From a virus: 64,000 nucleotides of DNA. Below, one piece after another: positions 12,293-48,092 of the stretch (positions within the stretch are counted from its first letter, which is position 1; every line of letters starts with the position of its first letter). The notes under the pieces are model-generated. The model made no database searches and was not told the origin of the DNA. It worked only from the letters and a program-made list of their open reading frames with translations. The stretch lies in IMG/VR virus record IMGVR_UViG_3300045988_108162, positions 12,467 through 76,466 of that record, one strand, 5' to 3'. The position numbers and the translations under genes were made by a program.

Positions 12293-12504
12293 CCGTAGAA
12301 GAATTAGCTAATAAAAGATACGGTGGCGAATTTGTTTTCATGCTTGATCATTTGGAAGGTGTAACAAGATTCGTTTTTGAATGTTTCGATCCCAGACCTG
12401 ATCACGAAGGTAAAAATACTTATATGGTTTCCTATTTTGATAAGCGCATCCGTAGAAGAGACGTAGTAGATGTGCCGTGTTATATGAATATTTTGCCAAA
12501 ATAA
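12289..12504 (+). CDS. Hypothetical protein
   Basis: 71-aa ORF coupled to the upstream gene. Confidence 0.45.
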   Translation: MTVEELANKRYGGEFVFMLDHLEGVTRFVFECFDPRPDHEGKNTYMVSYFDKRIRRRDVVDVPCYMNILPK

Positions 12505-28656: not shown

Positions 28657-29013
28657 TTATATTATTCCTTCCAAATTTACTTTAATAGAACCATTTATAG
28701 TTTTAATGCTCCCATCTATGGTTGAAATCACATCATCTAAATAATTTATAATACCTTCCATGTCATCAACCACCTCCTCCATATAAGTTACAGCCTGATC
28801 TGATTCCCAATATCTTTCTGAGTCTTGTAACGATTCAGGTATATTATCTCTCGCCTCAGTCTCTTCGTCTAAAATCATATCAACATCATCTTTGGCTGAA
28901 TTTATGTTGTGCTTCAACTCTGACAACTTTGATTTGATGTATTCAAAATCCGTTTTATACTTATTTACATTGTTAATAACATCCGATATTTTTTTTCTTC
29001 TCTTGTTGTTCAT
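28657..29013 (-). CDS. Hypothetical coiled-coil protein
   Basis: 118-aa ORF. Confidence 0.5.
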   Translation of the reverse strand: MNNKRRKKISDVINNVNKYKTDFEYIKSKLSELKHNINSAKDDVDMILDEETEARDNIPESLQDSERYWESDQAVTYMEEVVDDMEGIINYLDDVISTIDGSIKTINGSIKVNLEGII

Positions 29014-30431
29014 GCCTTTATCCTATTATAATATTCGATAATCTTTTCTTTTCTATCTCCTGGTTTTACTGCCATATTCTCAGCCAAGAACCTAAAATAC
29101 GACACCGGTATGTCCTTGAATCTAATTCCTTCATATTTTCCAAACCACATTATTATACTGTCAAGATCGTCTTCTCTCCTACCATCTCCATTCACAGATT
29201 TAAGCGAGGCTGCCCGGCGAAGGATCTCGTCTTTGGTAATAATATCACCCATCCTTATATTGGACAGAAGTTGATCTCCGGCAAACATACACCAGCCCTT
29301 AGAAGGGAATTGTTCGATTGTCAAGTCTTCTATCCGACCGAAACGCCTCATGTTGTCGCAGCAATCAACTATCAGCGCCTCTTTCTTGTCAGGATGGATG
29401 CGGACGGCGCGGCCTAATATTTGGTAATATGTTGAATATGAGAATGTTGGGCGACCAAACATCACACAATCAAGTTCAGGAAAATCAAATCCGGTAGCAA
29501 GCGTTGAATAATTAAAAACCACCTTCAACTTTCCTTCTTTGAAATCGGATATAATTTGCTCTCTTTTCTTTTTGGTTGTTAGCGATGTTACGACACCGGT
29601 TATGGCTCCCATCTTGGCATTCATGAACTCTGATATTCTATTACATGATTCAATAGAATCCATGCAAACCAAAATGGCTTTACGTTCGTTCATAAGTTGA
29701 AGAAGGCGCTTGTAGATAGAGTTGTTTAAGCCATTTCGTACAATACTTTCTTTAATAGATTCGTTGGTGTATTCAGCTCCGGTGCTGTTCAACATCAGAG
29801 CCGATTCATCAAAAGACCATCGTTCGTACTTAAGTGGACACCAAAACCCTTGAGAAGTTAATTCTTGTATTTGAGTCACATGAACTATTTTCTTGAAGAA
29901 ATTATGCTCGTCTTTCGTCAGCATATTGAGCTTGCTGTAGTTTCCTTCCAGCATGGAACTGTAGGTTCGGAGGCGGCAGGGAGTGGCGGTGAAGCCCAGC
30001 ACCTTCGCCTCTGGGAACCTGTTCATAAACTCCATAAATTCAGAACCTTCTTCAGGAGAATACCCGCTATGCACCTCATCTATCAATAATGTGTCTATCC
30101 CTATATCTTTCAACCTTGCTACGTCTTTCTTTATGCTTTTAAGTGTAGCATAAGTCATAGCCGATAACTCTTTTTTTTTACATGAAGCAGAATATATGGT
30201 AGGTTTAGAACCGAATGATACAGCCTTCGCATAATTCTGCTCCAGAATCTCTTTAGATGGCTGTAATACAAGGATAGGTCTTTTTAATTCATGAGCTATC
30301 TTGCTAATTATCAAAGACTTCCCCGCTGCACACGGCAAGACTTCTATGCCAGGCTTCTTAGATCTTCCTGTAAGGAACTTAAGCCCGGCATCTACTGCCT
30401 CTTTTTGGTAAGGTCTAAGTTCAAAGCCCAT
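29010..30431 (-). CDS. SF2 DExH-box DNA helicase
   Basis: Motif I is LPCAAGKSLI, motif II is LIDEVH, motif III is GFTATP, and motif VI is YQILGRAVR. Confidence 0.85.
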   Translation of the reverse strand: MGFELRPYQKEAVDAGLKFLTGRSKKPGIEVLPCAAGKSLIISKIAHELKRPILVLQPSKEILEQNYAKAVSFGSKPTIYSASCKKKELSAMTYATLKSIKKDVARLKDIGIDTLLIDEVHSGYSPEEGSEFMEFMNRFPEAKVLGFTATPCRLRTYSSMLEGNYSKLNMLTKDEHNFFKKIVHVTQIQELTSQGFWCPLKYERWSFDESALMLNSTGAEYTNESIKESIVRNGLNNSIYKRLLQLMNERKAILVCMDSIESCNRISEFMNAKMGAITGVVTSLTTKKKREQIISDFKEGKLKVVFNYSTLATGFDFPELDCVMFGRPTFSYSTYYQILGRAVRIHPDKKEALIVDCCDNMRRFGRIEDLTIEQFPSKGWCMFAGDQLLSNIRMGDIITKDEILRRAASLKSVNGDGRREDDLDSIIMWFGKYEGIRFKDIPVSYFRFLAENMAVKPGDRKEKIIEYYNRIKA

Positions 30432-30798
30432 CGCAATCTATTTTACTGTTTTTTGAAAGTTCTATTATCGCCTCTTTCAACATCTCCCTTGCTTTATCTT
30501 CGTTATCTTCAAGCAAGCATACACTGCACGATATGCCCATACGATCCCCATAAGCCTCGGCATTACCTAATGTGAATGCGCAGCAGTAATCATAATCCAT
30601 GTTTTTTGCTACGGCAATAAACTGATTATCTTCTATCAGTACAGCATATTCAGCATCAGTTTCACACATGATAATGGCTTTATCTTTTTTTATAGACAAT
30701 ACCTTGTTTCTAAAAAGTCCGTTATAAATCCATAGTTCCTTTCCTGCATTTTTATAAAACGCAACCATATCTTCCTTGATTGTAACTTCTTTTTTCAT
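30421..30798 (-). CDS. Hypothetical protein
   Basis: 125-aa ORF. Confidence 0.5.
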   Translation of the reverse strand: MKKEVTIKEDMVAFYKNAGKELWIYNGLFRNKVLSIKKDKAIIMCETDAEYAVLIEDNQFIAVAKNMDYDYCCAFTLGNAEAYGDRMGISCSVCLLEDNEDKAREMLKEAIIELSKNSKIDCDGL

Positions 30799-30801
30799 GA
30801 C

Positions 30802-31158
30802 TTACTTGTGTTTAACATCAGTAATTAAAACATATCTTTTAACAATATCTTCAAGACTCACAGAAGAACGTATATATAGTTTTTCTTCGTACTCATATAG
30901 AGCGTACCCTTCTTTTATGTCTAATATCTTAATCACATGCTTGCCTCTTTCAAATGGATCCTCAAAGTAGTTCTTATGTTCGTATCTTTGACCTACTTTG
31001 ATTTTGTCAGTTTTCTTCTTCATCTTATAACGATCTACTGCTCTACCTGTTTTTATGAAAGCTGTCGTGAGTAAGTATAATAAAACTAAATACAAAAGGA
31101 TCGCTACTCCACATATTAGATCTTCTTTCATTACACTCCTTTTAAATAGTTGAACCAT
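30802..31158 (-). CDS. Hypothetical membrane protein
   Basis: 118 aa with one TM helix. Confidence 0.5.
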   Translation of the reverse strand: MVQLFKRSVMKEDLICGVAILLYLVLLYLLTTAFIKTGRAVDRYKMKKKTDKIKVGQRYEHKNYFEDPFERGKHVIKILDIKEGYALYEYEEKLYIRSSVSLEDIVKRYVLITDVKHK

Positions 31159-31297
31159 ATATCCTCCAGCTTCTCCTGAAGCTCAAACGCTTTCTTGAAA
31201 TTCCCGCATCGTACAGCAACTTCTCTCATGTATGTCAAGTTTATAACTTCCGGATCTTGCCGGTATTTTGTTCTTAACTTTTGAACATCATCGTATT

Positions 31298-32317
31298 TCA
31301 TCGTTTTATCTTTTTAGACGGATCCCAATCCGAAGAGAAAGGGCATTCGTTTTTGTTATGTAATCCAAAGTCGCAATAATAACACAGTGCTGACGGGCAG
31401 GGTAGCTTGTTTTGCGAAACAGGCTGGCTTAGGGTGGCACGCCGCTTGCTATACCTGGCTCCTTCTGCTCCCTGGATGTACGCTTGAAATGATTTTACAC
31501 TATTATCTTCAAAATCATACATTTTAGATAAAGTGTCATTTAGCATTTCTATAGATTTTGTTTTACGTTCCTCATCCACCTTAACCTTTTGGTACTGCCT
31601 GGTCCTGGTAAAGAAATAGATGTTCATATCTGGTAGAACCCCACCATATCTTCTATAGATGTAAAACGAATATATAGGATGCTGTAAATTTGTTTCCAGC
31701 TTTTTAGAATCAAAAATTTTATTACCTGATTTCCAATCTATGACATAATGATGGATCACCCCTTTGCTCTTTATAGCCAGATGAAGGTCTACTGATCCTA
31801 CTATGTACACATGTGTATGAACGTCACCATTTATATCAACAGGCTTAGGAAGACGATACGGCAGCACAAAATCTTCTTCTACTCCAACTATAGCACCGTG
31901 TCTGATAAGTTTCTCACAGGGATTAAGATCACTATCAGCTATCATAAACCTATTGCCGTCTTTTTTGAACAGATCCACAATCCAAGCAAGAAGCTCCCCA
32001 GATTGTTTCATGGCTATCATCATATTTTCTGGTGATTGCCAAGGTATGTCTTCTTGATAGGAATAGTAACTTATCGCTTCTCCAAGGTCTTTACCAGAAG
32101 GCTGTCTTCCGTTCTTAAAGAAGTATTCCAGTGTTTTATGGATAACCGTACCATAAGATGTAGCTTCTTGTTTTTCTGTAGACCTTTTACCCTCTACGTA
32201 AGTCTTATACCATTTCATTGGACAAGTAAGAAACGTATCTATCTGGGAATAAGATATGGCAAGACGTTTCACACCATTAAACTCCTTATATAGCAAATGT
32301 GTTTCCGGGACCATCAT
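31298..32317 (-). CDS. Cas4/RecB-like PD-(D/E)XK exonuclease with Cys cluster
   Basis: The N-terminus reads SQIDTFLTCPMKWYKTYVEG. IDWKSG supplies the catalytic Lys, and the C-terminus has the Cys cluster CPSALCYYC...C. Confidence 0.7.
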   Translation of the reverse strand: MMVPETHLLYKEFNGVKRLAISYSQIDTFLTCPMKWYKTYVEGKRSTEKQEATSYGTVIHKTLEYFFKNGRQPSGKDLGEAISYYSYQEDIPWQSPENMMIAMKQSGELLAWIVDLFKKDGNRFMIADSDLNPCEKLIRHGAIVGVEEDFVLPYRLPKPVDINGDVHTHVYIVGSVDLHLAIKSKGVIHHYVIDWKSGNKIFDSKKLETNLQHPIYSFYIYRRYGGVLPDMNIYFFTRTRQYQKVKVDEERKTKSIEMLNDTLSKMYDFEDNSVKSFQAYIQGAEGARYSKRRATLSQPVSQNKLPCPSALCYYCDFGLHNKNECPFSSDWDPSKKIKR

Positions 32318-32673
32318 AAGTCATTGTCTTTAAATCCTTCCGGGTAATATACGACATACTTCTTACCGTCTTCTGGTGTCATGGCAAACTGCATGTAGTT
32401 ATTACGATTACGATGCTTACCATCTAATCCTCGCTTCCAATACAGAATCCCGTCTATATCCACATAAGACCGTCCGCGTTCGGCTCTAACTACGTCCGTG
32501 TGCAGCAGATACCCGTCGGAAGACACAATCCATACTTTATCTCCTTTGTTTAAATAAGATATTCTTTTTCTTACAACAACCTTTTTCTTATTATCCAATA
32601 CAAATTCCTCGTCAGTCATACTCTTCGTCCTCCTCTTCTTCTGTTTCAAAATCAATTCCATAACACTGATCAT
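32314..32673 (-). CDS. Hypothetical protein
   Basis: 119-aa ORF. Confidence 0.5.
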   Translation of the reverse strand: MISVMELILKQKKRRTKSMTDEEFVLDNKKKVVVRKRISYLNKGDKVWIVSSDGYLLHTDVVRAERGRSYVDIDGILYWKRGLDGKHRNRNNYMQFAMTPEDGKKYVVYYPEGFKDNDL

Positions 32674-32826
32674 AATGCTTGGTCAGTTCTTCTGGTTCTA
32701 AATCTTGTCCAAAATCCATGTTAAAAATATCGTAATTAGTAAAGCACTGTTCCTGCCGGCAGGAAATCTATGAATGCTGCTTTTATTTCTTCAATTAGGC
32801 CCAAGTGTAACCTTGGGCCATTGTAT

Positions 32827-34527
32827 TTATTTTTTGTCATCTCCTTTTAGCTTCTTTAAAGTATCTGCAATCGGAAGCTGATCAATGACTCCCAATGCCG
32901 GAGCGACGGTCTTAACAACATTGTTAAGGAAATTACCGGTACTGTTCTGACCGCCGTCAAATACCGTGATATTTCCGAGGTTAATGTGCTCAAATGCCTT
33001 AACCTGTTCTCCAGCAATTTCTTTCCACTGATTAACCATCTTGTACTGGATGGCTATCTGAGGATTGGATTCTGCTGCTTCCACCATAGCCTTAAATCCG
33101 TCGGCTTCTGCCATTAACGACTTTTTCTTACCTTCGGCTTCTGCTTCCAACTTCATCTTAATAGCCTTTGCTTCGGCTTCTGCTTTTGCCAAATTGGCTG
33201 CTGCTTCAGCGGCAGCCCGGCGTTTAATCTTTTCTGCTTCAGCATCAGCTTGCAAGATAGCCTCTTCCTTCTGGGTTTCAGCCGGCACAATCTTTTCAGC
33301 CTTAAGCGCAGCCTGAACTTTCTTAGCCTTAGCTTCTTCCACTTCTTTGTCGGCAAGCTCTTTTGCTGTTTTTACAGCCGCTTCCGATTTAACTTTTTCT
33401 TCTCCGGCCTTCTTTTCTGATTGAGCTTTGATGATCTGTAGTTCTGATACTGACACAGCAACCTCCTTCTGGGCATTGTTGTATCCTATAGACGCATTTT
33501 TCTCAGCCTCAGCCTTCTTAATCTGAGCTTCAGAGTCTTGTATTGCTATAGCCGCTTCCTTGTCAGCTTCAGCCTTATTCTTTCCGACTTCTTCCATTCT
33601 TTCAGCCTCAGCTTTGTTTACCTCAAGTTCTGCCTTAGATCTTGCAATCGCCGATTCTTTGTCAGCCAAAGTCTTTGCAATAACCGCAGCCCTATCTCTA
33701 TCGGCTTGAGCTACACCGATCTGTTTTTCTTTATCGGTTAAAGCCAAAGCTACTTCTTTTTCTTTCTTTGTTTCAGCTACTACCGTTTCCTTTTCTTTTT
33801 CAGTATAGGCAATTTGAATCTCTTGCTCTTTTTGGGTATTAGCTACAGCCGTTTCTTTTTCCTTTTGCTGTACAGCAATCTTAATAGCACCCAGCTTTTC
33901 CTGTTCTTCGATATTAGCCTGTGCTTCGTTCAGGGCCTTACTTTCAGCTTCTTTGCCAAGATTCATGATATAGCCGGCTTCGTCTCTGATGTCACTGATG
34001 TTGATATTTAGGAGGTAAAGGCCTAACTTATTAAGTTCGTTATCAATGTTTTTTCTTGCCTTATCCAAAAACTCATCCCTGTCAGAATTAAGTTTTTCAA
34101 TCGTCATTTCAGCAATGATCAAACGCATTTGGCCATAAACGATATCCGTAATAAGATTTTCAGTAGATTCAGTATCCATCCCCAAAAGCCTTTCTGCTGC
34201 ATTCTGCATAATTTCAGGATTTGTGCTGATTGCTACTGTAATAGTAGTAGGTACATCCACTCTGATATTTTGAGACGACAAAGCACCGGTGAGCCTACAA
34301 TCTATTTGCATAGGCTCCATAGACAAAATATCATAGCTTTGAATAATAGGCAAGACGAATGCCGCTCCACCATGATATAATTTCGCCGATTTCTTTTCCC
34401 CACCTGTCTTACCATAAACGACCAAGACTTGATTAGGCTTACATCTACGATACCTTGATAAGACTCCGATGATTGTCAAAATAATCACTACAGCTAAGAT
34501 AGCTGACACGTACATGATTGTTGTCAT
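32827..34527 (-). CDS. floT: FloT-type flotillin (SPFH/band-7 domain protein with a long EA-rich flotillin repeat region)
   Basis: N-terminal TM segment, then YRRCKPNQVLVVYGK...GGAAFVLPIIQ. The mid-region reads YIMNLGKEAESKALNEAQ, followed by AEAEK/EA repeats and a C-terminal ITVFDGGQNSTGNF. This is co-linear with B. subtilis FloT as I remember it. Confidence 0.85.
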   Translation of the reverse strand: MTTIMYVSAILAVVIILTIIGVLSRYRRCKPNQVLVVYGKTGGEKKSAKLYHGGAAFVLPIIQSYDILSMEPMQIDCRLTGALSSQNIRVDVPTTITVAISTNPEIMQNAAERLLGMDTESTENLITDIVYGQMRLIIAEMTIEKLNSDRDEFLDKARKNIDNELNKLGLYLLNINISDIRDEAGYIMNLGKEAESKALNEAQANIEEQEKLGAIKIAVQQKEKETAVANTQKEQEIQIAYTEKEKETVVAETKKEKEVALALTDKEKQIGVAQADRDRAAVIAKTLADKESAIARSKAELEVNKAEAERMEEVGKNKAEADKEAAIAIQDSEAQIKKAEAEKNASIGYNNAQKEVAVSVSELQIIKAQSEKKAGEEKVKSEAAVKTAKELADKEVEEAKAKKVQAALKAEKIVPAETQKEEAILQADAEAEKIKRRAAAEAAANLAKAEAEAKAIKMKLEAEAEGKKKSLMAEADGFKAMVEAAESNPQIAIQYKMVNQWKEIAGEQVKAFEHINLGNITVFDGGQNSTGNFLNNVVKTVAPALGVIDQLPIADTLKKLKGDDKK

Positions 34528-34558
34528 AACTTTTAAAATTTAATTGTTGATAAAAAAA

Positions 34559-35053
34559 TTAGATACTTAATTCTCCTTCTTCATATTTTATATTCGACTT
34601 GTCGCCGTTTTTGTAGGTTTTTCCAGACAAGCATCTTACTCTCATTTGCTCTTGTCTTCCATTTTTCGAAATATTTACCATATAATGATTCTTCCCTGAT
34701 CTAAATACTATCTCCACCTCTCTGCCATTTAAATCTTCCGGACATTCGTACACCATTTCTTGTTTTAACTTAAGAAGTAACTTATATACGTAAAACAAAA
34801 CGATAAAGAAAAACGACCCTATCACAACCCCTACTAAATGGGAACCCGAAAAGTAGGTAGTCCAGCTATATCCAAGAATAAAATGTGTTATGCCCTTGAA
34901 TGATATGATGTCCGACAAAGACATACTTAAATCAGAAGCACTGTCAATGTCAATATCCGTATCCAGATCAGATCCTAATATCGACAACAAAAACTGTATA
35001 ACAAAAGCAAATGACGCTATTAAAGCCATGCATAAAATTATGTCACTTCCCAT
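34559..35053 (-). CDS. NfeD-like short membrane protein (two TM helices plus a C-terminal OB-fold), the usual flotillin partner
   Basis: It lies immediately upstream of the flotillin on the same strand, as in yuaF-floT. The C-terminal beta-rich domain reads EVEIVFRSGKNHYMVNI...RVRCLSG. Confidence 0.6.
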   Translation of the reverse strand: MGSDIILCMALIASFAFVIQFLLSILGSDLDTDIDIDSASDLSMSLSDIISFKGITHFILGYSWTTYFSGSHLVGVVIGSFFFIVLFYVYKLLLKLKQEMVYECPEDLNGREVEIVFRSGKNHYMVNISKNGRQEQMRVRCLSGKTYKNGDKSNIKYEEGELSI

Positions 35054-35294
35054 ACCCTTCTGTTATTATTTTGTAAACAAGATCAGTCATATCTTTGATG
35101 GTCTCCATATCATAATCAATAATAACAATATTGAATTTTTGTTCCACCATCACTTCCAGTTCAATTTGATCAACAGAATCTAATCCAAGTTCTTTAAACG
35201 TCACATCTTCTTCATGAACTATATCTATTTCCGAATTAAGAAACTGAGTAATAATTATATCCTCTATTATCTTTCTGATTCTTACTTTTTCCAT
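35043..35294 (-). CDS. Acyl carrier protein-like (PP-binding) protein
   Basis: Reads FKELGLDSVDQIELEVMVEQKFNIVI; this is the DSL/DSV phosphopantetheine-attachment Ser motif with the helix II pattern. Confidence 0.65.
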   Translation of the reverse strand: MEKVRIRKIIEDIIITQFLNSEIDIVHEEDVTFKELGLDSVDQIELEVMVEQKFNIVIIDYDMETIKDMTDLVYKIITEGYGK

Positions 35295-35995
35295 TGCTTT
35301 CTAATTTTGTTAAATAAATACGTTTTTATGTTTTTCAATCGCTCTTTGTCTGTTTCCGAACTTCCGGTAAACAAATAATCCGGATTTCCTTTAGCCGGCG
35401 GCGTAGGCAATTTAGATACGGCAAACAACCAATCCATTTCCTTATTCTTCTTAGACTCCAAATAAGGCTCGGTAGCGATCTTAAATTTTTCAGCTATTAA
35501 GTCAAAGAGCTTTGAGTTTTTAAGGTTCATATGGACTGAAAAAGCCTGAGAAGGCGGTTTCCATATGAAGTTACATAAGCTCATTGTGTAATCTCCTGAC
35601 TCTGCTATATAAGATTCTGTTACCTGAAGTATGACCTCTTTCTTAAATGAGGTGTTACCCATAAACCAACACAATCTGGATTCCGCTTCTTTTTTGCTGA
35701 CACCTATGTCTTTTGAATATGATTCGTACATTCCTATCATAATCTTCAACGTTTCCAGAACCTCGTCCGTCATTTCCGGTGTCTCTATATAATTCACAAA
35801 AGACGTTCCTTTGTTGGTTAATCTCATCACGCCTGATTTTAATTTCTCAACCAGGCCAAGCTCTATATATCTCCCAGCATCTTCTTCCGGCATGGCTTCG
35901 ATCATAACCGAATCCTTCTGTCTTATGGCAAGAAGATTAGCGAGATCATTAGGAGTCATGTCTGATGCTGCAAGTTGTCTGAAATTGATGTACAT
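35282..35995 (-). CDS. Hypothetical protein
   Basis: 237-aa ORF; 13-nt overlap with the ACP-like gene. Confidence 0.55.
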   Translation of the reverse strand: MYINFRQLAASDMTPNDLANLLAIRQKDSVMIEAMPEEDAGRYIELGLVEKLKSGVMRLTNKGTSFVNYIETPEMTDEVLETLKIMIGMYESYSKDIGVSKKEAESRLCWFMGNTSFKKEVILQVTESYIAESGDYTMSLCNFIWKPPSQAFSVHMNLKNSKLFDLIAEKFKIATEPYLESKKNKEMDWLFAVSKLPTPPAKGNPDYLFTGSSETDKERLKNIKTYLFNKIRKQWKK

Positions 35996-35997
35996 GC

Positions 35998-36204
35998 CTA
36001 ATCAGCTTTAATAAAAATAACATCCTTGTTATCCTCCCTCTCCGCGTGATTACACGGACCTGCAACCACACCCACTGCCCCGCATGTAAAGTAATTAAAT
36101 ATACATCCTTCACATCCTGCATCTGGTGCCGTAGGTTCCACGCATTTTAATCTCACAAGTCCGGCATCAAACACTTCTCCTATTTTAAATTCCTTCTTTT
36201 CCAT
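35998..36204 (-). CDS. Small Cys-rich protein
   Basis: Contains CVEPTAPDAGCEGC...CGAVGVVAGPC. Confidence 0.4.
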   Translation of the reverse strand: MEKKEFKIGEVFDAGLVRLKCVEPTAPDAGCEGCIFNYFTCGAVGVVAGPCNHAEREDNKDVIFIKAD

Positions 36205-36219
36205 ATTTCCTCCTTGTTT

Positions 36220-36822
36220 TTAACTGTTGTATCCTTCTTTGATAATCGAATTTCTACCGGTAGATACCGACTGTCGAAGATCGTCATGTACAGAATCTAC
36301 CGTAGAATACTTGTTTCTGGTTGTAAAAATCACTTCCAGCATCTCCTTGTAATCACCTAAAGCCACTTCGTATCTTGGATCCACTTTGGCTTTTCTTTCA
36401 GCCTCGGCATTACTTTTAGCCAGCTCTCGGTCGAGAAGATCTTCTTTGATTCGGTCAGCAATCATATCAAGTTCTTTTTTAATAACTTCTCCTGCTGCCC
36501 GAAGTTGACCTTCTACGTCACCAAGCTGGTCTTGGACGGTTCCTATTTCTTTCTTTAGGCGATCGTATTCGTTAATCATACCCATATCACCTGCATAGCC
36601 GGAAAAGTCCTTGATTATTCTGGTTCCTTCTTTAAGGAGCTCAATAACTCGTCTTTTACGTTCTCTGCTTATTAAAGACGGAAGACGATAATTCATATCC
36701 GCCACCGCCTTATCATGTATGGAGTTGATTAAAAACATCTCTCTTTCATCTCCTGCAAACTCAGTAAGAACCAAAAGGAACTTACTTATCAGGTATTCGT
36801 TTTCTTCTACTGTCAGTCTCAT
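36220..36822 (-). CDS. Hypothetical coiled-coil protein
   Basis: ATG at 36822 (MRLTVEEN) is preferred. The track extends the ORF in frame to 36975 across the DnaB-like stop. An A9 run lies in the 14-nt spacer. Confidence 0.5.
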   Translation of the reverse strand: MRLTVEENEYLISKFLLVLTEFAGDEREMFLINSIHDKAVADMNYRLPSLISRERKRRVIELLKEGTRIIKDFSGYAGDMGMINEYDRLKKEIGTVQDQLGDVEGQLRAAGEVIKKELDMIADRIKEDLLDRELAKSNAEAERKAKVDPRYEVALGDYKEMLEVIFTTRNKYSTVDSVHDDLRQSVSTGRNSIIKEGYNS

Positions 36823-36836
36823 GGTTCTTATTTTTT

Positions 36837-37970
36837 TTAATACAATGACTGTTCTTCTTTTGTCTCTTGTTCTTGTTCCTGATTGTCCGTAACGTCTTCC
36901 ACAGTATAGAGCTTGGGCGGCGTCGGCGGCTGGTTGGGGTTCACGAACTTCGTCCCGCCCTCCCCGTACATCCATCCATGCCCCGGCAGAATCTCTGGGT
37001 GGATTGTATTAGTAAGCTCTTCCATACTAACTTGCCTTACCTTCAGTATATGATGAAACACCAGTCCGGCTGTCCTGAATGATGTTTTGTTTTCAGTTTT
37101 AAACCTATCAAGAGTCTGATACCAATCTTTCCCAAATATCATATACTTATCCAGCCCGTACCTACGAGGATTGTGCAAACCTATCATTAACGTACATAAC
37201 TGACCCAGCGTATCAGATTGGTAAAAATCAGAAAGACGCGGAGGCTGCTCTTGTGGGCTTTTTATCCTTCCTTCTATCTCTCTGTTGAATTGTGATATGA
37301 TGAGGAAAAATATGTTTTTATATACTAATTTAGCTTCGTTCATAACCGCCACCAAATCATCTATAGCCGACTTAGGATCTAACCCCATTCTTTTTATCAA
37401 AGCAATATGATCGACTTTAAATATTATAAGACGTTTGTCTTTGTGTTTGGTAGCTATATGATACACAGCCGCCTCAAACTCTTTTACCGTACACGGAGCA
37501 TCGATGTATATTATATTATTCCTGATTTCACCTTGAAGGATTTCAAACATCCTCATCTCTTCCACTGTATTAGAATCTTGCCTTCTTAATATTTCAGGAG
37601 CCCGCTTTTTCATATCCTGGCTCATTCTACGAAGAAGAAGATCTTGAGGATTCATTTCGAACTCGCAATTAACAAGAAAATAATCTTCTGCTTGCGGGTT
37701 GATCATCGGATTCATCACATTTTCCAATATCTTTTGGGCCACATACGATTTACCTACAGATGGCCGGGCTCCTATGGCAATAGCATGCTGAGGGAAAATA
37801 CCTCCAAGCAAAGCCTCATCAATATAATCGTATCCGGTTTTAGCGGGGATAAGCTCTCCCCGCCTGTATTTCAAGATATTCTCATACGCCTCTTCCATGA
37901 CCTGTTTAGAGGTCTTGAATATCCTTCTTATATCTATCCTATTTGCTATCTCCTCGTGCATTTTTGTCAC
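36837..37970 (-). CDS. DnaB-like replicative helicase (RecA-fold C-terminal domain)
   Basis: Walker A reads GARPSVGKSY, the DnaB H3-like motif reads ISQFNREIEGR, and Walker B reads IIFKVDHIAL. Confidence 0.75.
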   Translation of the reverse strand: MTKMHEEIANRIDIRRIFKTSKQVMEEAYENILKYRRGELIPAKTGYDYIDEALLGGIFPQHAIAIGARPSVGKSYVAQKILENVMNPMINPQAEDYFLVNCEFEMNPQDLLLRRMSQDMKKRAPEILRRQDSNTVEEMRMFEILQGEIRNNIIYIDAPCTVKEFEAAVYHIATKHKDKRLIIFKVDHIALIKRMGLDPKSAIDDLVAVMNEAKLVYKNIFFLIISQFNREIEGRIKSPQEQPPRLSDFYQSDTLGQLCTLMIGLHNPRRYGLDKYMIFGKDWYQTLDRFKTENKTSFRTAGLVFHHILKVRQVSMEELTNTIHPEILPGHGWMYGEGGTKFVNPNQPPTPPKLYTVEDVTDNQEQEQETKEEQSLY

Positions 37971-38217
37971 CTTTTGTATCCGATTTGGATCCCCTATTAG
38001 CTTTTACTGATTTATACCTAAGACCGTTCTTGGTATGAGAACAATCCTTTCCTTTTCTCCAGCCCTTACCCTTCTTCTTGTCCGTTTCGTAGTTTTTACG
38101 ACCAAGCTCTCGGCGTTTGGCTTTCTGTTCCGGTCTGGCATTTATCTCCTTGTCCTTTTTAGCCTTTTTCTTCCTGGCTTCGGGATGAGTCCTGTAGTAC
38201 TCTGTTGATCTGCCCAT
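37939..38217 (-). CDS. Lys/Arg-rich basic protein (histone-like composition)
   Basis: 92 aa, very basic, with KKKAKKDKE and KKKGKGWRKGK. It overlaps the DnaB-like start by 32 nt. Confidence 0.4.
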   Translation of the reverse strand: MGRSTEYYRTHPEARKKKAKKDKEINARPEQKAKRRELGRKNYETDKKKGKGWRKGKDCSHTKNGLRYKSVKANRGSKSDTKGDKNARGDSK

Positions 38218-45510: not shown

Positions 45511-45758
45511 TTATTTAATATGCTTATCGGCTGGATTGATTATCAATCCATCGTCACATGAAGGGAATGATATGTTAGATTCTCCATTATCAAGATTAGT
45601 CAGTTTAACCGTTCCAGCATATTCATCATCCACAAAAAAAACAATTGACCCGAAGAAACCACAAACCTGCATTGATATGCATTCATCATTGCTCCAAGTT
45701 GTCTAATCTTAGTTTTAATCTCTAAAAGTTGAGCGTTGTTGATTATATTCTTATTCAT
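45511..45758 (-). CDS. Small hypothetical protein split at a T8 tract (plus-strand A8 at 45634-45641); a -1 shift would join the two halves
   Basis: The 57-aa N-terminal part MNKNIINNAQ...SSGQLFF ends soon after the run. The -1 frame continues as VDDEYAGTVKLTNLDNGESNISFPSCDDGLIINPADKHIK. Confidence 0.3.
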
Positions 45759-45911
45759 ATTTTATTAAAGTTTATCTATTATTTTGTCATCCATTTCCTG
45801 CCATTCATCACTCACGCTTATAACCAATCCTATGACAGTGAATGATAATAGCAACGTAAAAATAAGCCATAACAGAAAGCAGATAAAAACACATACATAC
45901 CTCATGATTTT

Positions 45912-46658
45912 TCAGTTGTTAGATAAAAGCAAAATCGGTTCATTTGACTCCGCAATTGCTTTTATTTGTTCTGGATTGATAAAACTCTTGACTTGTTCGC
46001 TTATATTACAAATGGACTTGATCATATCAACGAATAATTTCGAGGTACATTCGTTACACTCCACTTCCATTATCTGTTTATGTCTATTGTATGATATGCT
46101 CGTTACACAATTCAGCCAGTGCGCATAGGTTCCTTTTTCTGTATTTAACCTGCTGTATTCTACTTTTGTCTCTCCATTTCCATATTCAATTACTCTTTTT
46201 AGAAATGGTTTTGCATAAACACTAAAACCGAAAGGTTCGGCATTTAAAGCATCTAAACGAGAAGTTCCATCTCTCCATTCTCCATTCTCATAGTTCCCTG
46301 TCCATTCCACAGAGGGGTTAGGAACAATGTTTCCGTTTTTGTCATAGGCAAATGAACATAGAGTTTCTAACTGATACTTAATAACAGGTACTTCTTCTAC
46401 TATTTTATAACTCAAACATCTCTTCAGAACTTTCCTGATTTGACTCACTAGATCAGAAAATGATGTGCTATTGAAATATCCTTCGTTACCTAATCTGTTT
46501 GTAGGTAATTTGATCCCATAAGAACGAATCTTATCCACATCTTCTTTTGATAAAGTAGTGGTAAGCACTCCTTTTTGGGTGATATTCACTTTAACAGTTA
46601 CAGATAAACTGTTGTTATCATTCTTTTCCGTTATATTTAGTGTTGTTAATACTGCCAT
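45912..46658 (-). CDS. Hypothetical protein
   Basis: 248-aa ORF. Confidence 0.55.
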   Translation of the reverse strand: MAVLTTLNITEKNDNNSLSVTVKVNITQKGVLTTTLSKEDVDKIRSYGIKLPTNRLGNEGYFNSTSFSDLVSQIRKVLKRCLSYKIVEEVPVIKYQLETLCSFAYDKNGNIVPNPSVEWTGNYENGEWRDGTSRLDALNAEPFGFSVYAKPFLKRVIEYGNGETKVEYSRLNTEKGTYAHWLNCVTSISYNRHKQIMEVECNECTSKLFVDMIKSICNISEQVKSFINPEQIKAIAESNEPILLLSNN

Positions 46659-46676
46659 AATAAGATCTTTTTGAAA

Positions 46677-46928
46677 TCAATTCGAATAAATATAATGCAT
46701 TCCTGCTTCATATACCCTATGTACATCAGGGTCATTCTTGTCTTCCGGTTCCAATTCACTTTCTTCACGAGTATAATTCCATTCAGAGTTGTAGTACATA
46801 TCCTCATTTGTTTTCTCCAAGGAGCAATCTTTCATCAAATTCATATTTTCTCCCCAGACTGCAACTTCTTTCTGTTGCTCTTCTTCTGTCATAAGAGATA
46901 TTTTGTCTTTCAATTCTTTCCAGGTCAT
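46677..46928 (-). CDS. Hypothetical protein
   Basis: 83-aa ORF. Confidence 0.45.
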   Translation of the reverse strand: MTWKELKDKISLMTEEEQQKEVAVWGENMNLMKDCSLEKTNEDMYYNSEWNYTREESELEPEDKNDPDVHRVYEAGMHYIYSN

Positions 46929-46952
46929 GATTTTTAAAAGATGATTAATAGT

Positions 46953-47336
46953 TTATTCTACATCAAAAAGTTGATCTAACACTAATAATTCGGCATCCAT
47001 GTCTTCATCTTTCGGGAAACGAACTTTTATATTTCCAAACTTAGATGTCTTAAACAAGATGTAGGGGTTCATATCTTCGGCAGTCACCGGCTTATACTCC
47101 TTAACTTCCGACATCTTGAGATACCAGTCACCTATTTTTACAAACCCAGAAAAGATAGAACACAGATGCGCTTTTACAGACTGTATCTCCTTTTTATCTT
47201 TGAAAGGTATAATTTCGTCCTTTCCCCTTATCCTGATTGACAAGAAAGGACGAATGTTATCTGTTTCATTTTGAAATTTGAAGCCTGTTATGGCTTGCTT
47301 GGGGATTCTTCTTCCCATTAATATAAAATAGCTCAT
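46953..47336 (-). CDS. Hypothetical protein
   Basis: 127-aa ORF. Confidence 0.5.
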   Translation of the reverse strand: MSYFILMGRRIPKQAITGFKFQNETDNIRPFLSIRIRGKDEIIPFKDKKEIQSVKAHLCSIFSGFVKIGDWYLKMSEVKEYKPVTAEDMNPYILFKTSKFGNIKVRFPKDEDMDAELLVLDQLFDVE

Positions 47337-47647
47337 TGTGATAAGTGATTTTGTTTTATATCAGGTAAGTAATTTGTAATAACATCAAGTGATATCCATA
47401 ACTCTGGCTCTATGCTGTTTTTTATTCTATCACTGAAAAGAGAATTATCATCACAATCACAATGAGAGATTGTGATATAACAATCTTGATAATCCCACCA
47501 ATGAGCCGATTTAAAATCGTCTCCTCCATTCCAAAACCCTATTCTTATACCTCTTGGGTTGAAATCTTCATCTATCCAACTTGGGTGATAAGCCAACACT
47601 TCTTCTCCCTCTGAAGGTTTTTCCTCTTTGAATTTCTTCCAGTTCAT
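47333..47647 (-). CDS. Hypothetical protein
   Basis: 104-aa ORF. Confidence 0.5.
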   Translation of the reverse strand: MNWKKFKEEKPSEGEEVLAYHPSWIDEDFNPRGIRIGFWNGGDDFKSAHWWDYQDCYITISHCDCDDNSLFSDRIKNSIEPELWISLDVITNYLPDIKQNHLSQ

Positions 47648-47747
47648 CTCACCTTTAATTAATTAGACACAAATATACAAGTTTTACTAAGATGCCCTTC
47701 TGTCATCTCTTTGACATACTCCCACACCTAAAGTTCGCGGTAGTATG

Positions 47748-48092
47748 TCAATCTATTGATTTCTTCCCAATCTTTTTAATCTTTGTTGGTCTTGACAATC
47801 GATAATCCTTTTCTATCGGCCTATCGAATACGTCATTCCTATATCCTTTCTCGTAAATACTAACCCTTGCACAAAACTCAACCACATCGCCTGGTAATAA
47901 ATCGGCGCTTTCGAATCCTTTTGTCAAATCAAACCACAAATGATCTGTTACTATTTTACCATCGAGTAACACGTCTTGTAAAAGTATTGTCTTTACAGGT
48001 CCTTTATACCCATCCCTGAATCCAAAACGAATGAATGTCGCTGTAAATACGTGCCGATCTCTTGATCCTATTATTTTCAGTTCTTTTCTCAT
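47748..48092 (-). CDS. Hypothetical protein
   Basis: 114-aa ORF downstream of the ATPase. Confidence 0.5.
   Translation of the reverse strand: MRKELKIIGSRDRHVFTATFIRFGFRDGYKGPVKTILLQDVLLDGKIVTDHLWFDLTKGFESADLLPGDVVEFCARVSIYEKGYRNDVFDRPIEKDYRLSRPTKIKKIGKKSID

Follow-up and report, generated by a model that had tools for sequence, protein, structure and literature searches.

Why would a phage of the human gut carry both genes of a flotillin operon? The question is raised by a block of minus-strand genes in a 64,000-nucleotide (nt) stretch of viral DNA (IMG/VR record IMGVR_UViG_3300045988_108162, record positions 12,467 to 76,466; hereafter the window), in which a gene for a 566-amino-acid (aa) SPFH/flotillin protein is preceded by one for a 164-aa NfeD-like protein. 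We consider the identity and the host origin of this phage operon nearly certain, and its role a matter of graded likelihood that the following sections weigh. A preliminary description of the same DNA, made from the sequence without database searches, had reported five open reading frames (ORFs) here; all are present at their positions on the minus strand, including a 68-aa protein with 5 cysteines (Table 1).

The phage flotillin

The 566-aa product had been described beforehand as an SPFH/flotillin, and both diagnostic Pfam domains are found above their curated cut-offs: Band_7/SPFH (aa 30-211) at 90 bits against 23.6 (E = 2.5e-25), and the flotillin C-terminal domain (Flot, PF15975; aa 450-559) at 37.7 bits against 27 (E = 2.5e-9). 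Its closest PDB sequences are human flotillin-2 (1e-22) and flotillin-1 (1e-17), and PHROGs v4 holds no family that matches it. The N-terminus carries a single strong hydrophobic segment, the anchor, at about aa 5-24 (Kyte-Doolittle 2.4-2.8, with the peak within aa 10-19). An E/A/K-rich coiled-coil region at about aa 206-450 (window 33180-33910) shows an 11-residue (hendecad) periodicity at lags of 11, 22 and 33. This periodicity is visible only in the protein; on the gene, Tandem Repeats Finder returned just one short 27-nt array.

The more specific label "FloT-like" held at the family level but not at that of the FloT equivalog, since the NCBIfam model NF058507 scores 146 bits against a cut-off of 700, with its best stretch at aa 9-275, mainly in the N-terminal half. 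The phage protein is a member of the flotillin family, of the prokaryotic SPFH2/reggie-like kind, and no FloT equivalog. Its upstream neighbor on the same strand, across a 31-nt gap, is a short NfeD-like gene; the yuaF-floT gene order claimed at the outset is borne out.

The NfeD-like operon partner

The 164-aa protein called for indirect evidence. Pfam NfeD (PF01957) does not match it at any E-value up to 10, nor does any model in NCBIfam, PHROGs or PADLOC, and a 6-sequence profile run against PDB (phmmer/hmmsearch) also came back empty. As these direct domain searches gave nothing, the assignment was made from structure and a wider profile. An AlphaFold model built with six homologues (pLDDT, the predicted local confidence score, 72 overall and 83-89 in the C-terminal third) begins with three helices (2-25, 52-69 and 72-101), followed by a six-stranded β-barrel resembling the oligonucleotide/oligosaccharide-binding (OB) fold (strands 112-163; domain at about aa 110-164). 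Two segments pass a Kyte-Doolittle threshold of 1.6, matching the two transmembrane helices proposed from the sequence, and the third helix is weakly hydrophobic. NfeD domains are the best PDB matches of the barrel; Bacillus subtilis YuaF (2k14) stands at rank 10 and the short NfeD homologue 2exd at rank 40. The fold match is not exclusive to NfeD, because generic OB folds, for example ribosomal uS17, score nearly as high. An exhaustive HMMER search gathered a family of 155-190-aa proteins (409 cluster representatives, E up to 1e-3), of which 2 of 78 members reach Pfam NfeD (best 6e-5); when the 78 members were made into a profile, YuaF (2k14_A) came first among PDB entries, with an alignment across the complete OB domain but only a marginal E (0.046).

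The known NfeD2 proteins (YuaF/YqiJ) are likewise short, with N-terminal hydrophobic stretches, an all-β domain and little sequence likeness to other NfeDs (PMC2636767), and they invariably occur with an SPFH2 flotillin (Hinderhofer et al. 2009, PMC2636767). With 164 aa, N-terminal hydrophobic stretches and an all-β domain, the phage protein fits the NfeD2 definition of ~140-175 aa (PMC2636767). On its predicted structure and gene context we accept it as NfeD-like, probably of the NfeD2 (YuaF/YqiJ) type; the original call stands by structure and gene order and finds no counterpart in the Pfam NfeD model.

The most conserved part of the 155-190-aa family lies elsewhere in the protein. Between the first two helices (aa 28-48; window 34910-34970, minus strand) runs an acidic DxDxDxD loop, whose conservation (D31, T32, D35, D48 and an SFKG motif) spans phage and bacterial members. 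It looks like a metal-binding or interaction motif; we know of no described function for it.

A genuine phage locus

The possibility that the block is host DNA or a misassembled contig, raised with the first description, does not fit its context. The region 30000-38000 of the window shares 94.9% DNA identity with the complete 151-kilobase (kb) genome of the human-gut phage csAssE-Sib (OR575929.1), the remaining window is collinear with that genome at 92-96% identity, and OR575929.1 carries terminase, portal, major capsid, tail, tRNA and diversity-generating-retroelement features. The flotillin gene is found on 162 IMG/VR contigs, and metagenome contigs of 130-155 kb carry it by the hundred. 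When IMG/VR was scanned again with a wider alignment, to which bacterial flotillins and that of Vibrio phage KIT04 had been added, 174 relatives came back rather than 162, essentially the same lineage, with the top 80 loci identical between the two scans. Across 82 independent viral loci, the flotillin, NfeD-like, acyl-carrier-protein-like (ACP-like) and exonuclease genes are present in all 82, and the gene for the 237-aa protein p237, that for the 68-aa protein p68 and the DnaB gene in 81. No foreign island was seen in the base composition of the window. Because it is collinear with a complete phage genome and present in 82 viral loci, the block is genuine phage DNA, neither host DNA nor a chimera. 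Its embedding in a replication/accessory module was likewise confirmed by the DnaB-like helicase, exonuclease and superfamily 2 (SF2) helicase genes on its flanks.

The lineage is a ~150-kb phage, very common in the human gut, whose host order is likely Bacteroidales. We do not place it among the crAss-like phages (Crassvirales): within the phage collection, its major capsid protein has cultured relatives only in the Cellulophaga phages phi4:1 and phi17:2 (145 kb), at 34% identity, and these two phages have no flotillin match.

Capture of a Bacteroidales operon

We then compared the phage pair with bacterial genomes, scanning one genome per species. The scan yielded 80 loci in Bacteroides, Parabacteroides, Prevotella, Phocaeicola, Leyella and Xylanibacter, with flotillins that are 62-67% identical to that of the phage over their full length. 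Of 81 bacterial loci, 80 have an NfeD-like homologue (164-165 aa, 30-41% identical to the phage protein) as the next gene upstream, in the same orientation, and the surrounding genes are housekeeping genes. The NfeD-like/flotillin pair is a core chromosomal operon of Bacteroidales. Over all comparisons, phage and bacterial NfeD-like proteins are 30-44% identical (39%, E = 2e-40, in one direct comparison). At most viral loci, 31-34 nt separate the two genes; at most bacterial loci, the spacer is 20-26 nt.

In neighbor-joining trees, which are indicative only, the phage sequences group into one clade outside all sampled Bacteroidales, for the flotillin and for the NfeD-like protein alike. Within the tree set, flotillin identity is 65-73% between phage and bacterium and 71-100% between bacteria. 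GC content at third codon positions (GC3) is 0.38 in the phage flotillin gene as against 0.52 in the bacterial genes. The host-like operon, the monophyly of the phage sequences, the phage-like GC3 and the lack of the pair in relatives with the same module synteny together point to a single old capture: both genes were acquired jointly, once and long ago, from a Bacteroidales-type host. There is precedent for such a joint acquisition, as SPFH proteins and their NfeD partners have been laterally transferred together and SPFH2-NfeD2 operons are conserved (Hinderhofer et al., PMC2636767).

Two peculiarities were seen on the bacterial side. Loci of Phocaeicola vulgatus type (L139-L144, L153) hold a second, more divergent class of flotillin/NfeD-like pair, 62-63% identical to the phage flotillin and on a long branch in both trees, which in two metagenome-assembled genomes stands beside the standard copy; it could be a paralogue or bin contamination. 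One bacterial contig (L083, 8001-9980; protein P0109) encodes a flotillin of 659 aa in which about 90 residues at the end of the SPFH domain are duplicated in tandem, a duplication that could be real or an assembly artefact.

Purifying selection and natural variants

Between the lineage of the window and a second abundant phage species (L165/L166; flotillin 83% identical), the flotillin gene shows a ratio of nonsynonymous to synonymous divergence (dN/dS) of 0.064, with dS near saturation. Because between-species dS was saturated for several genes, we added the corresponding ratio for polymorphisms within the lineage (pN/pS). This is 0.042 for the flotillin (67 distinct IMG/VR alleles), 0.060 for the exonuclease, 0.078 for DnaB and 0.168 for the NfeD-like gene. 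Purifying selection acts on the flotillin with the same strength as on the phage replication genes.

Constraint is distributed unevenly over the protein. Against the host flotillin, identity reaches 79% in the SPFH domain and 83% in the C-terminal domain, compared with 44-56% in the anchor, coil and tail. Lengths of the homologues in the phage lineage range from 408 to 595 aa; among the 120 closest, 566 and 555 aa are the commonest and 577, 544, 533, 478 and 467 aa are rarer, all multiples of 11 apart, which points to gain and loss of coil repeat units in register. Many other lengths (568, 564, 560 and more) fall off the 11-residue pattern.

A natural deletion was also found. On a 41-kb contig (L175, Logan SRR31242603), the segment 6001-6480 has lost ~1.7 kb and corresponds to window 32827-35053, with the flanking genes intact. 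What is left is a 159-aa ORF that joins two ends in frame, ~83 aa from the N-terminus of the NfeD-like protein and ~75 aa from the C-terminus of the flotillin; P0147 is another fusion protein of this kind. Since the deletion removes most of the NfeD-like and flotillin genes, the cassette is dispensable in some settings.

A variable slot in related phages

The preliminary description had proposed a search for SPFH and NfeD domains in related phages, and the outcome was mixed: the pair recurs in the second species and is absent from three other relatives. In the second species the gene order runs DnaB, p200, p237, ACP, NfeD-like, flotillin, exonuclease. A 154-kb ENA contig (L172) without the pair has, instead, p236, ACP, a DNA methylase, a p119-like protein, two radical S-adenosylmethionine (radical-SAM) proteins and the exonuclease, its segment 7941-10946 being the slot equivalent to window 32674-35042. 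A 150-kb contig (L173), also without the pair, has p235, two small ORFs and the exonuclease, and in L174 p237 is kept, the pair is absent and the arrangement is different again. As these three hold other contents beside p237, the stretch that separates the ACP gene from p119/exonuclease is a slot for variable cargo, and the flotillin operon is one of its alternative contents. The gene for p237 is a shared phage gene, which the ACP gene joins in the flotillin-carrying species and in L172.

Other parts of the module vary as well. The SF2 helicase has 473 aa in the window, 817 aa in L175 (8882-11335) and 607 aa in L173 (10014-11837). Both longer versions hit Pfam Hom_end_hint (intein or homing-endonuclease type), and hence a mobile insertion is present in some genomes. 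The second species encodes NAMPT/NAPRTase-like and phosphoribosyltransferase-type proteins of NAD salvage (L165:17180-19726, L166:16880-19342); in L165, a TnpB/OrfB_IS605 element lies in the 5' part of this region, with a NAMPT ORF of 497 aa versus 820 aa.

Genes around the cassette

The features of the locus are collected in Table 1.

Table 1. Genes and spacer of the flotillin locus with its flanks (window coordinates).
Feature	Position	Strand	Basis or location
Flotillin, 566 aa	32827-34527	minus	ORF; Pfam Band_7/Flot
NfeD-like operon partner, 164 aa	34559-35053	minus	ORF; predicted structure and gene order
Spacer from NfeD-like stop to flotillin start, 31 nt	34528-34558	minus	Sequence read; operon-type spacing
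ACP-like protein, 83 aa, Ser40 in DSV motif	35043-35294	minus	ORF; PP-binding
p237, winged-helix (MarR-like) protein, 237 aa	35282-35995	minus	ORF; predicted structure
p68, small protein with 5 Cys, 68 aa	35998-36204	minus	ORF; weak phrog_33085 match
DnaB-like helicase	36837-37970		Upstream flank in the direction of transcription
PD-(D/E)XK exonuclease	31298-32317		Downstream flank
SF2 helicase	29010-30431		Downstream flank

The ACP-like gene overlaps the NfeD-like gene by 11 nt and that of p237 by 13 nt. Scans for sigma-70 promoters and intrinsic terminators gave counts equal to those in shuffled controls, with a tool that does not cover Bacteroidales promoters, and are therefore uninformative on operon boundaries.

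The 83-aa protein had been recognized as an ACP-like, phosphopantetheine-binding (PP-binding) protein with a DSV serine, and this proved correct: PF00550 reaches 26.7 bits (cut-off 20.8; E = 6.8e-6), phrog_5934 ("acyl carrier protein") matches at 2e-8 and ACPs in PDB at about 1e-5, and its motif LGLDSVDQIEL aligns with the ACP motif LGLDSLDTVEL. The NCBIfam ACP equivalogs reach at best 28-30 bits against cut-offs of 70-71, which is below equivalog level, and the protein is a divergent, phage-type ACP-like protein. Its gene has a pN/pS of 0.48, indicating relaxed constraint. The serine is kept in L166. In the ACP-like protein of L172 (7675-7938), Asp replaces this phosphopantetheine-attachment Ser (LGFDDLD versus LGLDSVD), which raises doubt whether the phage family always acts as a carrier.

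A model of p237 (pLDDT 86.8) has an N-terminal MarR-like winged helix and a helical C-terminal domain, so that p237 may be a DNA-binding or regulatory protein of the replication module; the same fold rules it out as an acyl enzyme or phosphopantetheinyl transferase (PPTase) partnering the ACP. Its phage family reaches down to 36% identity, its members mark related phages with the same synteny of the replication module, and it is conserved beside DnaB in several related ~150-kb gut phage contigs. For p68, no gene is called at its place in the second species (L165/L166). Upstream of p68, a 251-aa ORF (window 36220-36975, minus strand) overlaps the DnaB-like gene by 139 nt; as gene calls in related contigs give ~200 aa, its true start is probably an internal ATG.

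The presence of an ACP gene had been taken as a hint of lipid or acyl chemistry, a suggestion that finds no support in the relatives, the bacterial loci, the p237 fold or the genome annotation. No homologue of the ACP, p237 or p68 was found near any of the 81 bacterial flotillin loci, and no PPTase, acyl-ACP synthetase or lipid gene is among the annotations of the 151-kb OR575929.1. Relatives without the pair keep p237, and L172 keeps the ACP gene too, from which the adjacency of ACP and flotillin follows as incidental. The ACP-like protein, p237 and p68 are independent phage genes outside the flotillin cassette, and the tight spacing of the ACP, p237 and NfeD-like genes simply reflects phage gene packing.

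Farther away, outside the region studied here, OR575929.1 (L002) holds at 45751-47816 a diversity-generating retroelement (variable-repeat, template-repeat and initiation-of-mutagenic-homology features with a reverse transcriptase) whose target is a putative tail fibre protein, as well as several TnpB genes and tRNA clusters.

Proposed role of the phage flotillin pair

What, then, might the pair do for the phage? We favor, with a probability of roughly one half, a host-type SPFH scaffold that would preserve or reorganize the inner membrane during infection, a mechanism drawn from analogy with cellular flotillins. The pair would be transcribed together with early/middle replication genes, and the flotillin would enter the host inner membrane via its N-terminal hydrophobic anchor. 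There, the SPFH domain, the hendecad coil and the Flot C-terminal domain would drive oligomerization into a host-type scaffold or cage, to which the NfeD-like partner would dock through its OB domain. Mixed phage-host oligomers are plausible, given that the SPFH and C-terminal domains are ~80% identical to those of the host flotillin. The benefit would come from replacing or reinforcing the host's stress-protective flotillin system after the takeover of host gene expression, with membrane proteins and membrane integrity or energization kept working until lysis. The pair would then be an auxiliary, host-sustaining gene set, analogous to other host-derived phage genes. The cellular systems offer a template for such a function: the B. 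subtilis yuaFGI operon is switched on via sigma-W when the membrane is stressed (PMC2636767), and the Staphylococcus aureus FloA-NfeD system stabilizes unfolded proteins without ATP and is required for stress survival (PMC11222466).

Several considerations weigh against this proposal. The mechanism is extrapolated from homology, shared strand and spacing are the grounds for assuming that the pair is transcribed with the replication genes, and the Bacteroidales host, though likely, is putative. The parallel used here, S. aureus FloA, may be an imperfect guide, belonging to a different SPFH subfamily and a Gram-positive organism. The NfeD-like partner has diverged far more than the flotillin (30-44% identity) and could have changed function. 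Finally, rare variants delete most of the cassette, so it is not essential everywhere.

A role in superinfection exclusion or inter-phage competition, with the membrane complex blocking the DNA entry of later phages or sequestering receptors or channels, is unlikely in our assessment. It would suit a membrane-anchored protein encoded among early/middle genes; the equivalent slot of L172 holds DNA methylase and radical-SAM genes that are plausibly conflict-linked, and some genomes do without the cassette, as is common for accessory conflict genes. Against this, no PADLOC model matches the flotillin, the NfeD-like protein or the ACP (chance-level matches only, to p237 and p119, at E of about 0.01), the functional domains have stayed ~80% identical to a housekeeping host protein where conflict genes usually diversify, and the flotillin pN/pS of 0.042 speaks against an arms race. 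Given the conserved functional domains and the absence of a defense-model match, a role in sustaining the host is likelier than one in conflict.

The same similarity to the host could instead serve to hijack or poison host SPFH complexes, with co-assembly or mimicry redirecting or inhibiting a membrane partner in counter-defense or takeover; candidates would be an FtsH-type protease or a membrane-acting abortive-infection effector. That the oligomerization domains are 79-83% identical to the host's while anchor, coil, tail and NfeD-like protein have diverged is compatible with this idea, several SPFH subfamilies bind FtsH (PMC2636767), and a preprint raises HflK/C-like roles for the SPFH domain of a Crassvirales phage. 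However, FtsH binding is reported for SPFH1, SPFH3 and SPFH4 and not for the flotillin subfamily SPFH2 (PMC2636767), and the phage flotillin has neither a phage-specific extra domain nor a known target, which leaves this option, too, an improbable one.

A broader proposal, which we regard as speculative and doubtful, is that a virus-specified SPFH cage or microdomain, possibly co-assembled with the host flotillin, would organize the infection itself, either by compartmentalizing replication or assembly or by neutralizing membrane-targeting abortive-infection effectors. If true, this would provide the first case in bacteria of a functional flotillin scaffold encoded by a virus, and a natural genetic handle on the role of bacterial flotillins, in a very abundant human-gut phage lineage.

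A membrane platform for phage DNA replication or virion assembly, with replication or morphogenesis proteins of the phage concentrated at microdomains, seems quite unlikely. The cassette does sit between the DnaB-like helicase and the exonuclease/SF2 helicase genes, and flotillins act as client-recruiting scaffolds (PMC5718613, PMC3892786), but related phages with the same replication genes do without the pair, and its position is a variable cargo slot, so that location implies no replication role.

We hold it very improbable that the ACP, p237 and p68 form one lipid- or acyl-modification module with the flotillin pair. The tight packing, with overlaps of 11-13 nt at the p237/ACP and ACP/NfeD-like junctions, and the intact DSV serine motif would favor one; it is opposed by the bacterial operons without homologues of the three, by L172 (p237 and ACP without the pair) and L173 and L174 (p237 without the pair), by the winged helix of p237 and the annotation of the 151-kb genome without a PPTase or acyl enzyme, and by the relaxed constraint on the ACP with its Asp in L172. 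Neutral passenger DNA or a host-DNA assembly chimera, to which the host-derived genes and occasional deletion variants might lend some color, is hardly credible in the face of hundreds of independent assemblies from many samples, phage genes on both flanks, a composition drifted to that of the phage and strong purifying selection even where synonymous sites are saturated.

Relation to known systems

The closest relative of the phage pair in design is the Bacteroidales operon, with which it shares the two genes, their order and strand, the short spacer, and the acidic loop and OB domain of the partner. Unlike that operon, the phage copy lies in a replication module, has a lower GC3, is diverged in coil, anchor and tail, and forms its own clade. 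The same NfeD2-SPFH2 arrangement is found in B. subtilis yuaF-floT (yuaFGI) and Escherichia coli yqiJ-yqiK (PMC2636767), although the phage locus has no yuaI-like third gene. S. aureus FloA-NfeD, in which a flotillin and an NfeD protein work jointly in the membrane with a protective effect during stress or ATP depletion (PMC11222466), is by analogy a plausible model for how the phage pair may act.

Among phages, csAssE-Sib is essentially the same phage (flotillin 97.7% identical), and its GenBank entry labels the three genes "flotillin family protein" (WOZ57345.1), "transmembrane protein" (WOZ57346.1) and "acyl carrier protein" (WOZ57347.1), leaving the partner unrecognized as NfeD-like; the IMG label for the phage protein is also "flotillin". 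SPFH ORFs were tabulated in the T4-like phages 44RR, Aeh1 and RB43 in 2006 (PMC1524935), phage GIB1 has an SPFH lipoprotein for which the authors call the reason unclear (PMC13239085), and Vibrio phage KIT04 has an annotated flotillin family protein preceded by an 82-aa ORF only, with no recognizable NfeD. These are likewise phage-encoded membrane proteins of the SPFH family, but they show at most 34% identity to the window flotillin, in the SPFH domain only, and are apparently single genes without an NfeD partner.

The belief, stated with the first description, that such a combination had gone undescribed in phages therefore needs dividing. We found no published analysis of the phage operon, its host origin or its selection; the GenBank labels, KIT04 and the 2006 lists nevertheless precede this work. 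Already known, then, were the flotillin and ACP labels in GenBank and phage SPFH/flotillin genes as a kind. New are the recognition of the partner as NfeD-like, the capture of the whole operon from Bacteroidales, the evidence of selection and the decoupling of the ACP.

Implications

What bacterial flotillins and their NfeD partners do is a matter of continuing debate, and phage SPFH proteins have been listed since 2006 without explanation. Here, a very abundant human-gut phage lineage has retained a complete two-gene operon, beyond an SPFH domain. Its natural deletion and repeat-length variants offer a tractable system for the contribution of a flotillin scaffold under acute stress, with the caveat that the data link the lineage to no cultured phage-host pair. 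With the operon, a gene for membrane architecture joins the auxiliary genes that gut phages have taken from their hosts.

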